Notes: generated by a model not told the origin, from the letters alone. Shown: positions 3,201 through 12,267, numbered from the stretch's first letter. The stretch: 64,000 nucleotides of DNA from an uncultured Gemmatimonadaceae bacterium (GCA_963781585.1 CAWAGQ010000007.1:64001-128000), one strand, 5' to 3'. Translations and numbers: made by a program.

Positions 3201-3252
3201 GATACATTGACATTCGACAATACGGGGCCGTATTGTCGAATGTCAAGGTATC
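3201..3252. promoter_or_regulatory. Long palindrome containing TTGACA on both strands; probable promoter/operator of the ADOP gene
   Basis: TTGACATTCGACAATACGG-GG-CCGTATTGTCGAATGTCAA is a perfect 19-bp inverted repeat (3207-3246), extendable by GATAC/GTATC; about 60 bp upstream of the ADOP start. Confidence 0.75.
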
Positions 3253-3428: not shown

Positions 3429-4628
3429 TTACGGCAACCACTGATCGGGGGTCCAGCTGGTCTCCAGTCGCCCCGAGAAGAGCAGGAATCCCAGGCACAC
3501 CGCGTTGAACGTGACCGCGAATCCAAGCAGTCGCCAGCTCGTGGACTTTCGGAGCCTGGGCCAGCGGCGCGTCCAGCGCACCACCATGCTGTGCCCGATC
3601 AGCAGGGTCGCGTGATAGAGGCCGTAGAGGATGTAGCGCTGTTCGAGTCCGTGCCACGCTCCCATCAGGAGAAACGTCACCAGGAATCCGATGTGAGACG
3701 CGATGTACCGGTTTCCGCCAAACCAGCGCCCTCTGGCCGCGGCCATCGCGAACCGCATGTAGATGTGGTCCCGGAACCAGGTCGAGAGACTGATGTGCCA
3801 GCGATTCCAGAAGTCCACGATATTCACGGCCGCGAACGGACGATTGAAGTTCCCGGGCGTTCGCACCCCGAAGAACCGACTGACTCCGGTCGCGATTGCG
3901 CTGTAGCCGGCGAAATCGAAGAAGAGATAGGAACTGTAGACGTACATGTACTTCACAACGCCCACGAATCCGGGGGATTCGGCCCGAGGGAGCACGAGTT
4001 TCTGGATCAGGGCCGCAATCACGAACTTGTAGAGCAGGCCGCGAAAGATCTGGCTCACGCCTTCGTCGAACCCGGCCAGGAACGTCTGGCGCTCCGGTAC
4101 CGCACGATAGTCCTCGGCGAACCGCCGGTAGCGGTCAATCGGGCCGGAGGAGATGGTGGCCGGGAACATGAGATAGGCCAGGTAGGTCCCCGGCTCGATC
4201 CGCGTCTCCAGCCGGTCCTGCACGATGATCAGGGCATCGACGGCGCGGAAAGTCACGTACGAAATCCCGATGAATGCCGGTCCGGCGCCCGAGCCGGACG
4301 CGGTCATCACCTTGACCATGATGAGCGGCGCAGCACTGAGGACGATGGCGGCAGCGAAGACCCCCGTCGACTTGCGATGGGCGCGTGATCGCGCGAACGC
4401 GGCCACGAGACCCAGCTGGAACGCCGCGAACGCGACAGCGATCGCGAGTTCCGGGATGGCGTGACCCCGGAGGACGGTGTGACTCGGGCCGAAGTTGACG
4501 ACCGCCATGAGGACGGTCGCCGCGAGGATCCACCCCCGCCGGGAACGCCCGGCCATACCCAGGAACACCGCCGGCAAGCCGACGGTCAGGATGACGACGA
4601 AATAGGGAAGGTCGGTATAGGGAAGCAC
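3429..4628 (-). CDS. dltB: D-alanyl transfer MBOAT protein DltB
   Basis: GISYVTFR, ISSGPIDRYRRF, YLFFDFAGYS, NFNRPF..DFWNRWHISLSTWFRD, catalytic MGAWHG; operon context. Confidence 0.95.
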   Translation of the reverse strand: MLPYTDLPYFVVILTVGLPAVFLGMAGRSRRGWILAATVLMAVVNFGPSHTVLRGHAIPELAIAVAFAAFQLGLVAAFARSRAHRKSTGVFAAAIVLSAAPLIMVKVMTASGSGAGPAFIGISYVTFRAVDALIIVQDRLETRIEPGTYLAYLMFPATISSGPIDRYRRFAEDYRAVPERQTFLAGFDEGVSQIFRGLLYKFVIAALIQKLVLPRAESPGFVGVVKYMYVYSSYLFFDFAGYSAIATGVSRFFGVRTPGNFNRPFAAVNIVDFWNRWHISLSTWFRDHIYMRFAMAAARGRWFGGNRYIASHIGFLVTFLLMGAWHGLEQRYILYGLYHATLLIGHSMVVRWTRRWPRLRKSTSWRLLGFAVTFNAVCLGFLLFSGRLETSWTPDQWLP

Positions 4629-4637
4629 GCCCGCTGC

Positions 4638-6107
4638 CTAACGCACCATCTGCGCGAGTGCCTGGCGATCCAGCTTTCCATTCGCGGTCATGGGCAGGGC
4701 GTCGAGGCAGAAGATCCGGCGCGGAATCATGTAGCCGGGCAGTCGTTCCGCCAGCCTGGCTTTGACAGACGCCGTGATGTCGCTCGCCCGGTCCGACGCC
4801 GGAGAATCCAGCACGACGAAGGCGGCCAGGGAATGCGGCAGACCGTTCCTCGGCACGACGACCGCCGCGGCGTGCTGGACGCCGGGCACGGCGCGCAACT
4901 GCGCTTCGACGTCGCCGAGTTCGATCCGATAGCCGTGCAGCTTGATCTGATCATCCTGCCGTCCATCGAAGAAAAGCAATCCGTCCTGGACGTGGCCCCG
5001 GTCCCCGGTGCGGTAGGCCCACTGCCCGTTCCAGCGAACGAACGCCCGGCCCGTCAGTTCGGGAGCGTGAAGATAGCCGGGGCTCACGTTGGGTCCGACG
5101 ACCAGGATCTCGCCCCGCTCTCCCGCCGGCTGCGACACCAGCTGGTCGTCAACCACGACGACCTGGCACCCTGGTGCTGGCCGGCCAACCGGAAGCGCCG
5201 GGTAACGGTGGAGCAGCCCCTGGTCGACACGCACCGAGGTGGTGGCGACGGTGGTCTCGGTTGGACCATACGTGTTCCAGACCTCGGCCGCAGGAAACCG
5301 CTTCAGCAGGGTCTCCGCGGTCCCGGGCGCGAGCGTCTCACCGCAGAAGAGCAACCTGGCAAGGCGCGGCAGCATCGCGGCATCGAAGCGCCGTTCGGTC
5401 AGACAGAACTGCGCGAAGGTCGGGGTGGATACCCAGGTCGTCAGGTCGGCGTTGGCCAGGATGCGAAAGGCCCGACGCGGATCCGCGACGTCTTCCCGGG
5501 TGAGACTCACGAGCGTTCCTCCCGTCACCAACGCCGGATACACGCTCATGACCGAGAGGTCAAAGGAGTAGACGGCCTGGTCGAGAAACCGCTCGCCGCC
5601 GGGAGCGAACCCGTGCTCCTCGACCATCCAGCCCACGAACTGCTCGAGGTTGGCGCGAGTAATGGGCACGCCCTTGGGGTCCCCGGTGCTGCCCGAGGTG
5701 AACATGATGTATTGCAGCTGCTCGCCGGCAGGCTGCACGGGGACTGCTGTACCGCCCTGGCGAACGATCCGGGCGATCTGGGAGGGGTCCAGGACGAGCG
5801 AGGCCCGAGCGAGCGCGATGATTCGTTGAACGCGCACGTCGGGGATTGCGCTATCGACCGGGACGTAGGGATGCCCGGCGAGCAGACAGCCGAGGAAGCC
5901 AACCAGCATCTCGGGCTCCTTGTGTCCCCGCACCAGGATCGGCGCACCCGGCGTCACACGTTGGGCGGCGATGAAACCGGCGACCGCGCGCGCGCCATCC
6001 GCCAGCGCTCCGTAAGTCAGCGTTCGACCCTCGCTTTCGAGCGCCGCGCGATCGGGAGTCGCTACGGCCCAGCGGTCCACGGCCGCGACGACATCGATCG
6101 GGATCAA
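4638..6107 (-). CDS. dltA: D-alanine--D-alanyl carrier protein ligase DltA
   Basis: YIMFTSGSTGDPKGV, YSFDLSVM, WVSTP, FCGE, NTYGPTETTVA, YRTGD, QIKLHGYRIEL, TANGKLDR. Confidence 0.95.
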   Translation of the reverse strand: MIPIDVVAAVDRWAVATPDRAALESEGRTLTYGALADGARAVAGFIAAQRVTPGAPILVRGHKEPEMLVGFLGCLLAGHPYVPVDSAIPDVRVQRIIALARASLVLDPSQIARIVRQGGTAVPVQPAGEQLQYIMFTSGSTGDPKGVPITRANLEQFVGWMVEEHGFAPGGERFLDQAVYSFDLSVMSVYPALVTGGTLVSLTREDVADPRRAFRILANADLTTWVSTPTFAQFCLTERRFDAAMLPRLARLLFCGETLAPGTAETLLKRFPAAEVWNTYGPTETTVATTSVRVDQGLLHRYPALPVGRPAPGCQVVVVDDQLVSQPAGERGEILVVGPNVSPGYLHAPELTGRAFVRWNGQWAYRTGDRGHVQDGLLFFDGRQDDQIKLHGYRIELGDVEAQLRAVPGVQHAAAVVVPRNGLPHSLAAFVVLDSPASDRASDITASVKARLAERLPGYMIPRRIFCLDALPMTANGKLDRQALAQMVR

Positions 6108-6235
6108 AAGCCCTGATAGATGAAGTTCGGCGGCGCGGCCGTCCGGAACGAGTCGACGGCCATGATCGCCAGCAGGATGGCGATGTAATAAGCGACGCGG
6201 AGCGTCAGGCTGGCGAGGCTAGCGAAGCGAATCAT
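6104..6235 (-). CDS. dltX: DltX small membrane acyl-shuttle peptide (43 aa)
   Basis: Manual translation MIRFASLASLTLRVAYYIAILLAIMAVDSFRTAAPPNFIYQGF*; one TM helix plus C-terminal FIYxxF motif; stop overlaps dltA TTG start, start overlaps dltD end. Confidence 0.9.
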   Translation of the reverse strand: MIRFASLASLTLRVAYYIAILLAIMAVDSFRTAAPPNFIYQGF

Positions 6236-7451
6236 GGTAAAACGCATTCAGGACAGAGTCGAGAACCACCCAGCCCTTGGACGTCGGGTGCTGAAAGGGA
6301 TCCTTGAGCAGCGACGGCTCATACTCCCGTTCCTCGAACGTCAGGCACTCGATCGCGTATGACGCGGCGACTGCACGCAACCGTTCGTGATATTGCTGCC
6401 TGGCCGATGCGGATATACCCCAATAGTCCATGAACGCACCCGGGAAAGGGATACTGAGCACCAACGTGCGCGCACCGAATGTGTGAAGGAGTCGGAACAG
6501 CAGATCCAGGTCCTCCCACCGAGGCTCGGTGCGCAAGGACCTGAGAAACTCCTCGTCCGATCGGACTCCCTTGAGGTTCCGGTATTCGCCCGACTGCTCG
6601 CTGAAGCGGTCCGGGAGAAACCCGAAAGCATGGTCCGGGACGCTGCGCGCATATCCTGCTTCGGCATCGCGCTTCAGGGCGTCCCAGTCCAGACGCGCGG
6701 GGTGCCGCCGTACCGGCGTACGATACTCGGGGTGCGTCCACAACAAGGCGAGCACGTTGGCCTGGTCGCCCGCTTCGAGGGCGACGTTCTGGAGGCGCCC
6801 TAGCAACTGAAGCGCGGGGTTCAGGAACCAGCGCCGCCAGTCACCGGCTGCCAGCCCTTCGAGCGTGACCCGAAGGAATGCGTCGCGTTCCAGAACCTCG
6901 GGAAACGCGAGAAGGCGGCGCGCCAGTTGCTGCTTGAACCGGGCATCCAGCCCGGGGTTGAACACCGCCTCTCCCGTCTGGAGCCGGGAGAAGTTCGCGA
7001 TGTAGCCTGTGCGACTCATCGGCATGGCAGTGAACATCAGCGGGGTGAGGATCACCACCACCCTGCGGTTCCGGAGTCCCTCGCCGACCGATGCCAACTC
7101 CGCAAGGGTCTCGAGGGTTTCTGTGGCCCGCGATCCCACCTGGAAGACCGCGAAGCCGGTCGGGAAACGCGCGAAGAACTCGGGGGCCCGATAGTCGCTT
7201 TCGCGGACCAGCTCCGAACTCCCGTACACCGGGAGCAATGCCGAATCTTCGAAGGCGGCACGCTGGAGCTCGACCCCATACGTCTTCCGGGTCAGCGTGA
7301 GCGGCGCGATCCGCTCGATGTGGGCCAGGGACTGGCGGCGGGAGACGACTCCCAGGCCTGCCACGATCGCGACCCAAAGGACCGCCGCAACGAGCGCGGC
7401 CGTCAGGTGCGGAAGCGCTCCCGGTCGCGGGGAGGCGTCCCGCGACATCAC
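6219..7451 (-). CDS. dltD: D-alanyl transfer protein DltD
   Basis: N-terminal TM anchor, LPVYGSSEL, VILTPLMF, C-terminal D..HPTSKGWV; operon context. Confidence 0.92.
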   Translation of the reverse strand: MMSRDASPRPGALPHLTAALVAAVLWVAIVAGLGVVSRRQSLAHIERIAPLTLTRKTYGVELQRAAFEDSALLPVYGSSELVRESDYRAPEFFARFPTGFAVFQVGSRATETLETLAELASVGEGLRNRRVVVILTPLMFTAMPMSRTGYIANFSRLQTGEAVFNPGLDARFKQQLARRLLAFPEVLERDAFLRVTLEGLAAGDWRRWFLNPALQLLGRLQNVALEAGDQANVLALLWTHPEYRTPVRRHPARLDWDALKRDAEAGYARSVPDHAFGFLPDRFSEQSGEYRNLKGVRSDEEFLRSLRTEPRWEDLDLLFRLLHTFGARTLVLSIPFPGAFMDYWGISASARQQYHERLRAVAASYAIECLTFEEREYEPSLLKDPFQHPTSKGWVVLDSVLNAFYHDSLR

Positions 7452-7729
7452 GAATCAGGGCCGCGGCCGGATGCCTGCGCAGCGTCGCGCAGATTCACGC
7501 GCCGTTCCACGTCCTCGATGATCGCGAGCGGTGTTGCCCACGCTTCGCGATCGAACTCCGCCGGAGAAATCTCGATATCGAAGACCTCGCACACCCTAAC
7601 GACGAGGTCGACGGTTTGAAGGGAGTCGACCACGTGCGTGGCGAACAATCTGAGATGCGGATCGCGGCGAACCTCGTCAGTCTCTGCGACGTCGGCCAGG
7701 ATGTCCAACACCTGCTCAGCAAGCGTCAT
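7448..7729 (-). CDS. dltC: D-alanyl carrier protein DltC
   Basis: VDSLQTV phosphopantetheine Ser motif and EFDREAWATP, typical of DltC; 4-bp overlap with dltD. Confidence 0.93.
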   Translation of the reverse strand: MTLAEQVLDILADVAETDEVRRDPHLRLFATHVVDSLQTVDLVVRVCEVFDIEISPAEFDREAWATPLAIIEDVERRVNLRDAAQASGRGPDS

Positions 7730-7774: not shown

Positions 7775-7797
7775 TCATCAAGACACCGTCTTGATGA
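7775..7797. promoter_or_regulatory. Perfect inverted repeat upstream of dlt operon (candidate operator)
   Basis: TCATCAAGAC-ACC-GTCTTGATGA; 10-bp arms, 45 bp upstream of dltC ATG. Confidence 0.55.
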
Positions 7798-10845: not shown

Positions 10846-12267
10846 CTAGGCACGCGAAGGCATTGGGGCCAGATCCGTCGCGGCCACGGGAGCGACCGGA
10901 AGCGTCACGCGGAACTCCGTGCGGCCCGGCCGCGTCTCGACCGCGATCTGGCCGCCATGGGCCACTACGATACGGCGCACCAGGTCCAGCCCGAGCCCCG
11001 TTCCCTGACCTTGCGGCTTCGTGGTGAAGAACGGATCGAACATGCGAGGTTCCACCTCCCGCGGAATGCCCGGTCCATTGTCGATGACCCGAACCACGAT
11101 CTCATCGCGATCCCGGGTGGCCCGCACCTGTATCTCTCCCGACTCCCCCACCGCGTCGATGGCGTTGTCGAGCAGGTTCGACCAGACCTGGTTCAACTCG
11201 TCCCCCGCCATCACCAGAGGGAGCTCGGCGGGAACATCGAGTCGGACGGCGACGGACTTTGTCCGCGCCTTCACCGACAGTACGGTCAGTGTGTCGGCCA
11301 ACCCTTGCGCGATATCCATCGGCGTGGGGGACGCCGCGCGCCCCAGATTGGAGAAGCCCTTGACCGCTGATACGAGATCGTGAATCCGCACCGTGGCGCG
11401 CTCGACATCAGTGGCGAGCGACACCACAGCGTAGTCGGCCGCGATGCTGTGCAGAATGCGTTCGAGTGCCGCGCCACTCGCTGCCGCGGCCAGGCGGTCC
11501 AGCCCCTCGGTCGTGAGGGCACTGTCGGAGAGCACGTCGGCCAACGCTGGATCGACGCGATGGTCCTCGAGCCACCGGGTGATGCCTTCCTCACGGTCCG
11601 CTCGTTCAATGGCGGAATACACACCGGTGTGGGACGGCATCAGATTCTGCGCACTGAGTTCCCCCGCGGCGGCACGCTGATCGGCGGTGAGGTTTGCCGC
11701 GCCAAGCGCCGCGGCCGCGGCACTCGCCTCCTGCAATGCCTGACGAAGCAATTTTGCGCTTCGGACCGCCGCCGACGCGGGGTTGTTCAGCTCATGTGCC
11801 AGCCCGGCCGCCAGGCGAGCCAGCGACTGCAGTCTGTCATCCTCCACCGTGGTCGAGGACAAGACGCGGCTGCGGTCGATCATGAGGTGCACCAGCCGCT
11901 CAACCACGGTCGGGCACTCCCGGATCAGCTCCGGAAACATGTCCCGGTGCACGGCCAGGAGCTCTGTCTCCTCCTCCACTCGCCAGTCACCCAGCGAACT
12001 GACGACGCGGGAAAACGGAAGCAGCGCGGAAATGTCTCCGCCGCGCGTTTCGAGCGTAAAGCGCCTTCCGCTGCCGCGGTCCACTGTCGAGACGACCCGG
12101 CCGGTGAGCTGAATGATCATCTGATCGACGGGCTCGTTCTTCCTCGCCCCATATTCGCCAACCTGGTAACGGCGGACGGCACCGTGCGTCGCCAGCCACT
12201 CCAGTTCGCTGCGCGGGGCCCCAGCCAGAACCCTGTGTGCCGCCAATCGATCGACGATGTCCGACAC
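10846..12267 (-). CDS. Soluble sensor histidine kinase with N-terminal cNMP-binding-like domain
   Basis: AHELNNP H-box, NQVWSNLLDNAIDA, DNGPGI, FFTTKPQGQGTGLGL; no TM segments. Confidence 0.92.
   Translation of the reverse strand: MSDIVDRLAAHRVLAGAPRSELEWLATHGAVRRYQVGEYGARKNEPVDQMIIQLTGRVVSTVDRGSGRRFTLETRGGDISALLPFSRVVSSLGDWRVEEETELLAVHRDMFPELIRECPTVVERLVHLMIDRSRVLSSTTVEDDRLQSLARLAAGLAHELNNPASAAVRSAKLLRQALQEASAAAAALGAANLTADQRAAAGELSAQNLMPSHTGVYSAIERADREEGITRWLEDHRVDPALADVLSDSALTTEGLDRLAAAASGAALERILHSIAADYAVVSLATDVERATVRIHDLVSAVKGFSNLGRAASPTPMDIAQGLADTLTVLSVKARTKSVAVRLDVPAELPLVMAGDELNQVWSNLLDNAIDAVGESGEIQVRATRDRDEIVVRVIDNGPGIPREVEPRMFDPFFTTKPQGQGTGLGLDLVRRIVVAHGGQIAVETRPGRTEFRVTLPVAPVAATDLAPMPSRA

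Follow-up and report, generated by a model that had tools for sequence, protein, structure and literature searches.

Organization of the dlt Operon

The window analyzed in this study was a stretch of 64,000 nt from an uncultured Gemmatimonadaceae bacterium (GCA_963781585.1 CAWAGQ010000007.1:64001-128000), and the positions of the operon described here are counted from its first letter. On the minus strand, from 7729 to 3429, we found five dlt open reading frames (ORFs) in the order C-D-X-A-B, and every frame was open. Judged by sequence, the operon belongs to the Dlt protein families and is predicted to work like Dlt. The features were as follows.

7448..7729, minus strand: dltC, D-alanyl carrier protein of 93 aa with Ser36 in a DSL motif; NF003464 79.9 bits (cut-off 68), TIGR01688 78 bits (cut-off 52.35), PF00550
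6219..7451, minus strand: dltD, 410 aa, GTG start, one N-terminal membrane helix and an SGNH-like D-alanyl transferase domain; TIGR04092 157 bits (cut-off 150)
6104..6247, minus strand: dltX, membrane microprotein of 47 aa with the acyl-shuttle motif FIYQGF and Tyr44; PF12459 15.9 bits (cut-off 25)
4638..6107, minus strand: dltA, D-alanine adenylating ligase of 489 aa, TTG start, with Asp183, Cys255 and Lys478; NF003417 511 bits (cut-off 476)
3429..4628, minus strand: dltB, MBOAT acyltransferase of 399 aa, GTG start, with His278 and His326 and conserved motifs; TIGR04091 410.9 bits (cut-off 375)
7775..7797, 46-68 bases upstream of dltC: perfect 10-bp inverted repeat, a possible operator

The dltC/dltD and dltX/dltA pairs each overlapped by 4 bp and dltD/dltX by 29 bp, and a gap of 9 bp separated dltA from dltB. 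If dltX begins at its second ATG at 6235, the product has 43 aa and the dltD/dltX overlap is 17 bp. These results bore out the original prediction, made from the window sequence, that five core dlt components are intact and tightly coupled. The operon was present as a single copy in the host genome. The 10-bp inverted repeat had no second copy in the genome and none in the fetched loci. No sigma-70-like promoter was found upstream of dltC, no terminator-like site was found, and an Rfam search of the window gave no match. A near-perfect inverted repeat with 25-bp arms, unique in the genome, was observed at 3201-3252 between dltB and an ADOP permease gene. Each arm carried a sigma-70-like TTGACA-18-TATTGT sequence, and the repeat is a possible operator, terminator or mobile-element scar.

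Conserved Residues of the Relay Proteins

DltC, DltD and DltB passed the NCBIfam cut-offs, and DltA passed NF003417 but fell below the TIGR01734 cut-off (498.9 against 559.85 bits). The relay residues were DltC Ser36; DltA Asp183, Cys255 (in FCGE) and Lys478; DltB His278 and His326; DltX Tyr44; and DltD Ser79 and His388. Thus, each of the catalytic residues named beforehand (the DltC Ser, the DltB His, the DltD GSSE and His, and the FCGE Cys of DltA) was found. The best solved matches of DltA were the DltA structures 3fcc, 3dhv and 3e7w (E 1e-128 to 1e-121), with which SFDLS, FCGE and NTYGPTE aligned, and its pocket residues agreed with those of B. cereus DltA. The pocket match is consistent with the earlier reading of DltA as a D-Ala-type ligase. 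The DltA Cys has reportedly been linked, in work attributed to Du in 2008, to selection of the D-enantiomer. Both active-site His residues of DltB were present within the motifs RWHISL and WHG. DltX scored below the Pfam cut-off, yet it ended in FxYxxF (FIYQGF), in which F, Y and F were invariant in 20 of 20 aligned DltX sequences (this one and 19 others). FxYxxF is described as an acyl-shuttle motif in a summary of the Dlt relay mechanism (PMC12148441).

The DltD model had a predicted local distance difference test (pLDDT) score of 94.5, and its top Foldseek matches were solved DltD chains, with a template modelling (TM) score of ~0.72. Asp384 stood four residues before His388 (D-P-F-Q-H), whereas the DxxH spacing in four solved DltD chains is shorter by one residue. 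AcpS, a phosphopantetheinyl transferase, and alanine racemase were present in the host genome. Outside Bacillota, FCGE was kept in 50 of 53 DltA, WHG in 63 of 64 DltB and the catalytic Ser in all 54 DltD. By these motifs, the donor side of the relay is conserved in the non-Bacillota group. Two Chthoniobacterales DltD copies (L147 and L175) had GSCE in place of GSSE and lacked a catalytic His in the alignment, and they are possibly inactive or changed in chemistry.

Host Genome and Genomic Slot

The host genome (G000) comprised 5.7 Mb in 17 contigs and was 93.5% complete and 7.2% contaminated. Among the 120 best matches of its LpxC-FabZ protein, the organism names that could be read (7) were all Gemmatimonadaceae, and LpxC and KdtA were both present. 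The guess of a diderm from Gemmatimonadota or Acidobacteriota therefore resolved to a Gemmatimonadota host with lipopolysaccharide (LPS) genes. In this 93.5%-complete genome, no TagF or TagA/WecG profile match was detected, and no true LtaS was found (47.5 bits with the LtaS model against a cut-off of 970). The original prediction had noted that the window held no ltaS or tag genes, and this now extends genome-wide for tagA, tagF and ltaS.

The composition of the operon contig matched that of the genome (r 0.999), and mis-binning was rejected. The GC content of the operon was 65.3%, and its tetranucleotide fit lay at the 10th percentile of 290 windows. Chimeric mis-assembly had also been raised as a concern; there was no sign of it, and both flanks were colinear with the congener G001 at 90-95% identity. 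Between the colinear blocks lay 10.5 kb with the operon here and 9.3 kb of other genes, without a dlt match, in G001. Since the same blocks enclose differing inserts, the operon occupies a variable slot. At 10846-12267 of the window, a gene for a cyclic-nucleotide (cNMP)-binding histidine kinase had no counterpart at the matching place in G001, and the region was a mosaic of gene-sized indels. Large duplicated blocks of 88-91% identity were observed in the host contig pairs C5/C8, C2/C6 and C11/C17, which suggests that the bin contains two related strains; the operon contig was not among them.

Phylogeny, Distribution and Gene Order

Quick trees were built for DltB (86 rows), DltD (76) and DltA (75). 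They were unrooted and carried long-branch warnings. The sample included 22 Bacillota rows, biased to lactobacilli, and no proteobacterial sequences; one row (L081) came from the unpublished genome G035. The Gemmatimonadota match G219 and the weak match G043 were left out, and G219 was also left out of the later genome sets. The split between non-Bacillota and Bacillota had Shimodaira–Hasegawa-like approximate likelihood-ratio test (SH-aLRT) support of 97 (DltA), 99 (DltD) and 93 (DltB). Within the non-Bacillota group, rows largely tracked phylum, and the window grouped with all Gemmatimonadota rows and L001 (support 84, 98 and 97 for DltB, DltD and DltA, in the order in which the trees are listed). 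Forcing the window DltD to group with Bacillota was rejected by the approximately unbiased test (p-AU 0.0005), and recent transfer from Bacillota was rejected with it. The three-tree split and the rejected Bacillota placement argue for an ancient branch, patchily lost or transferred between related lineages, rather than a recent import.

A DltB search of species genomes returned 502 relatives, and 58 of the best 80 were labelled outside Bacillota. These were mostly Chthoniobacterales, including Ca. Udaeobacter, followed by Isosphaeraceae-type Planctomycetota, Chloroflexota and Gemmatimonadales; single records labelled Spirochaetales and Alphaproteobacteria also occurred among the best 80. DltD was found in 8 of 401 genomes of Gemmatimonadota, the phylum of the host (one weak), in 41 of 201 Chthoniobacterales (the order of a Ca. 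Udaeobacter genome), in 18 of 105 Isosphaeraceae and in 10 of 301 Chloroflexota (one weak). Chthoniobacterales often had two to four dltD loci per genome. By the trees, these cases form one group across four phyla, whereas the original prediction had spoken of scattered diderm cases.

The gene orders observed were D-C-X-A-B (23 loci), X-A-B-C-D (17, Bacilli), C-D-X-A-B (12, including three of Desulfosporosinus) and D-X-A-B-C (5). The permuted order had been taken as a diderm mark, but D-C-X-A-B was the commonest non-Bacillota order and all three Desulfosporosinus loci had C-D-X-A-B, so C-D-X-A-B was rejected as a signature of the diderm system.

Two records carried labels at odds with their placement or surroundings. 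The closest dlt operon (L001; 59% identity in DltB, same order) lay on a contig labelled Spirochaetales with high-GC neighbours of non-spirochaetal appearance; a wrong label or a transfer of the cassette between phyla could account for this. The Alphaproteobacteria-labelled L035 grouped inside Ca. Udaeobacter.

Acceptor-Side Changes in DltD and Added Modules

In a docking study of L. plantarum DltD, the glycerol-phosphate chain lies against Gln133 and Trp134 (PMC13653941). Our assignment of the corresponding column was indirect, by way of the SPQW motif in the solved chains. The Gln-Trp pair was kept in 19 of 22 Bacillota DltD and in none of 54 others, and the Gln occurred in 3 of 52 further copies. 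In the window DltD, TPLMF replaced the SPQWF of the solved chains, giving Leu-Met at the pair. This residue change points away from glycerol-phosphate chains. On two features, tagA, tagF or ltaS in the host (not found) and the Gln-Trp pair in DltD (replaced), the system does not belong with teichoic-acid alanylation.

In the first set, the Asp-His spacing was canonical in 22 of 22 Bacillota DltD and 0 of 54 others. The one-residue insertion before the DltD His was rejected as a clade marker, because an Asp three residues ahead of the His was found in 23 of 41 additional copies from Chthoniobacterales and in 21 of 159 representatives. DltD of the group had a low net charge (-11 to +13), and DltD of lactobacilli a high one; net charge was not used, because it was also low in Desulfosporosinus and was confounded by genome composition.

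Some relatives carried added modules at the extracytoplasmic end. An unnamed immunoglobulin (Ig)-like domain of ~100 residues closed 13 of 150 representative DltD and, in Chthoniobacterales, 29 of 55 DltB, compared with 0 of 54 other DltB; a lectin-like LamG domain ended two DltD. The Ig-like domain had no Pfam name and fell into unnamed Atlas clusters; its 15 matches included TylF methyltransferase fusions. Instances of this "GWAWD" domain lay at L052:4139-4447, at 28 other Chthoniobacterales dltB ends and at P0113 445-550; it was fused to DltB in one lineage and to DltD in others.

Candidate Acceptors and Partner Enzymes

Teichoic-acid enzymes were nearly absent among the carriers: the LtaS model exceeded its cut-off in 0 of 58 genomes, and TagF gave one weak match among 50 carriers. 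LpxC was present in 36 of 50 carriers, yet in 0 of 6 Chloroflexota-labelled carriers. Because these carriers were without LpxC, lipid A is excluded as the shared acceptor; it cannot be common to the whole group. The original prediction of an LPS or other envelope acceptor accordingly stands in part, as LPS/lipid A does not hold as a group-wide acceptor.

An unnamed family of membrane-anchored Thr-type enzymes was a candidate partner. Its members had 4-5 membrane helices and a sulfatase-fold (alkaline-phosphatase-superfamily) domain with Thr at the nucleophile position (WTLPSH). Such a Thr presumably cannot become formylglycine and would fit phosphotransfer chemistry of the LtaS/EptA/OpgB type. 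Thr-type enzymes were found in 8 of 10 Gemmatimonadota carriers (one being G035) and in 11 of 59 non-carriers (Fisher p 0.0003); counted by lineage, kin not being independent, the link held in 5 of 6 (p 0.003). Seven intact copies were present in the host, at C7:271231, C7:311831, C11:44092, C11:96065, C11:150487, C17:40779 and C17:68417. In G161, and at one of the five host loci that were examined, Thr-type genes adjoined GT-C, GT4, Wzc-like and flippase-like genes; Thr-type genes also adjoined dlt in four Isosphaeraceae loci and in L026 and L108.

In G161, a Thr-type locus was observed at C3:1883426-1899224, and tandem arrays of 7-8 occurred in Gemmatimonadales glycosylation loci. At L026:3-6913 and L108:10629-17000, dlt lay among 3'-phosphoadenosine 5'-phosphosulfate (PAPS)-synthesis genes, two Thr-type enzymes, and glycosyltransferase or epimerase genes; dltA was split in L026.

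Two other candidates were tried and rejected. The LtaS-like protein L090 (contig C11) had six predicted membrane helices, Thr at the LtaS nucleophile position and weak LtaS and OpgB scores. Its match to Vibrio VP1736 (E 8e-73) was far stronger than that to LtaS (E 2e-10), and it was rejected as a general Dlt partner since it occurred in only 3 of 57 carriers. PF00144 serine hydrolase genes lay beside dltD in two phyla, in 5 of 19 orphan loci (L137, L141, L149, L155 and L161) and in 6 of 8 Isosphaeraceae-group loci (L002, L007, L010, L011, L014 and L071); they recall DltE/FmtA but were not specifically DltE-like, as DltE was low or absent among the solved matches listed.

Proposed Mechanism and Alternatives

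Following the known pathway, DltA would adenylate D-Ala and load it on the phosphopantetheine of DltC Ser36, DltB (His326) would carry it through the inner membrane onto DltX Tyr44, and DltD would receive it on Ser79. This relay, from DltA through Ser36, His326 and Tyr44 to Ser79, is very probable. DltD might then pass D-Ala to a hydroxyl group, of a sugar or a polyol, on a glycan that is anchored in the membrane or linked to a lipid, a step that is less firm. We tentatively propose that the Dlt relay attaches D-alanine by an ester bond to an envelope glycan that faces the periplasm and is neither teichoic acid nor lipid A, and we give this proposal slightly less than an even chance. The relatives in three other phyla probably likewise decorate an envelope sugar polymer other than teichoic acid. 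A lower negative charge of the envelope is probably the purpose, and by analogy with Dickeya and Bordetella, the payoff could be cationic peptide resistance. In the Gemmatimonadota lineage, the acceptor glycan might bear phosphodiester substituents from the Thr-type enzymes of GT-C glycosylation loci; this is a lead only, and we consider it unlikely.

Several observations weigh against the proposed glycan acceptor. No gene neighbours of dlt were common to several phyla, so no acceptor gene travels with the cassette, and no acceptor gene lay beside the window copy. Orphan dltD loci were rejected as glycan loci, since a glycosyltransferase was near only 1 of 19 (63 of 128 listed neighbour ORFs scanned). 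No Thr-type enzymes were found in 31 Verrucomicrobiota-group carriers, 7 Chloroflexota-group carriers or the L001 genome, with up to 23 candidates scored per genome. In Isosphaeraceae they were nearly universal (88 of 105) whether or not dlt was present, so the test was uninformative in that family. The Ig-like domain was not found in the host genome, and it gave only generic fold matches (best Z 7.8). The role of Gln and Trp in DltD comes from docking and is read through an indirect column match. The longer Asp-His spacing in DltD could lower its activity. Finally, the operon was missing from the 64%-complete congener G001, so it is dispensable.

A universal membrane lipid, such as phosphatidylglycerol (PG) or a small glycolipid, could instead be the acceptor, yielding D-alanyl-PG in the periplasmic leaflet with an MprF-like role. 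This would explain a self-contained cassette without a conserved partner, in hosts with and without LPS; D-alanyl-PG has been described in B. subtilis lipids (PMC4837988), and PG has been modelled close to the active His of DltB (PMC11035591). However, the head group of PG is glycerol phosphate, and the DltD Gln tied to glycerol phosphate is lost; moreover, a range of polymer acceptors would better account for the several DltD paralogues per genome and for the appended Ig-like or LamG domains. We therefore regard a lipid acceptor as somewhat unlikely. Lipid A or the LPS core of the host, as suggested for soft-rot enterobacteria, would agree with the LpxC and KdtA genes of the host, the LpxC genes of most carriers, the polymyxin phenotype of Dickeya dltB (PMC3544676) and a description of D-alanine as a possible lipid A modification in Gram-negatives (PMC10931765). 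The Chloroflexota-labelled carriers belong to the same Dlt group without LpxC, which makes this acceptor improbable. In addition, the Bordetella acceptor is said, going by the title of Taneja 2013, to be protease-susceptible.

The helices, the Thr nucleophile position and the weak LtaS/OpgB scores of L090 would also suit a cryptic lipoteichoic-acid-like glycerol-phosphate chain made by this protein, with Dlt acting as in Bacillota. This is very improbable, given the closer kinship of L090 to VP1736 than to LtaS, its rarity among carriers and a DltD without Gln-Trp. It is also quite improbable that the cassette carries another small amino acid (glycine or D-serine), or that it sits in the variable slot as a passenger, inactive or in decay. 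The DltA score below TIGR01734, the non-canonical DltD spacing, the differing slot in the congener and the split dltA of L026 would fit such a view. In contrast, the pocket agrees with that of B. cereus DltA, and the frames are open and coupled; a dead cassette is further opposed by an 86%-identical DltD on an independent 35.7-kb contig and by conservation of Asp384 in at least 90% of 112 homologues.

Returning to the proposed glycan acceptor, a broader form of it is that the four-phyla, teichoic-acid-free Dlt branch marks an undescribed teichoic-acid analogue in diderms. An anionic periplasmic glycopolymer would be modified by Thr-type phosphotransferase arrays and then D-alanylated, with the acceptor chosen by swappable DltD paralogues and Ig-like domains. 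We consider this distinctly unlikely. The phyla of the branch include abundant soil bacteria (Ca. Udaeobacter, Isosphaeraceae and Gemmatimonadales), and about a fifth of the Chthoniobacterales genomes searched carry DltD. The question of the Dlt acceptor in teichoic-acid-free bacteria, which dates from the Dickeya and Bordetella reports, now spans a group in four environmental phyla. To this question, our analysis contributes the DltD residue change, the exclusion of lipid A as a shared acceptor and one candidate partner family. Identifying the acceptor would define a new envelope modification, and might reveal a new polymer of the envelope, in bacteria of soil and freshwater that are poorly cultured.

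Comparison with Known Systems

The operon shares with canonical Dlt (DltXABCD) the five components, the relay residues, FxYxxF, the DltD fold (TM ~0.72) and a coupled operon. It differs in that the host has an outer membrane, tagA, tagF and ltaS were not detected in it, and the proteins form a separate group in three trees. In addition, DltD here is without Gln-Trp and has an Asp-His spacing longer by one, and relatives add Ig-like or LamG domains and DltD paralogues. AlmEFG of Vibrio cholerae, which glycylates lipid A, has an adenylating enzyme and a carrier protein like Dlt, but its acyltransferase is unrelated and acts on the cytoplasm side, and it has no MBOAT, DltX or DltD. An MBOAT, a tyrosine shuttle, an SGNH transferase and a diderm periplasm are in common with PatA/PatB, AlgI/J and WssH/I, as outlined in PMC12148441. 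Those systems use an acyl-CoA donor and carry the shuttle motif on the MBOAT, whereas the present system relies on an adenylating enzyme with a carrier protein and has the motif on a separate microprotein.

Close parallels are diderm Dlt systems of Pseudomonadota. In Dickeya, dltB is needed for polymyxin survival (99% of the mutant killed), and the substrate "remains to be identified" (PMC3544676); in Bordetella pertussis, the dra locus adds D-Ala to the outer membrane (PMC4448142). The dlt genes of Dickeya, Pectobacterium and Photorhabdus and the Bordetella dra locus share with the present system Dlt-type genes, a diderm host and an unidentified acceptor. The term "undescribed system" in the original prediction was consequently overstated. 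Those loci are tied to cationic-peptide resistance, a benefit that is an analogy only here, and their hosts are host-associated, in contrast to the mostly environmental Gemmatimonadota, Verrucomicrobiota, Planctomycetota and Chloroflexota of this group. In the available excerpts of a 2026 review, Dlt is linked solely with teichoic acids (PMC13721041). Literature searches for dlt in Gemmatimonadota, Chloroflexota, Planctomycetota and Verrucomicrobia/Udaeobacter gave nothing relevant among the matches listed, and a survey in Schultz 2023, Taneja 2013, Pandin 2016 or their supplements is possible. The Dlt machine itself is already known.

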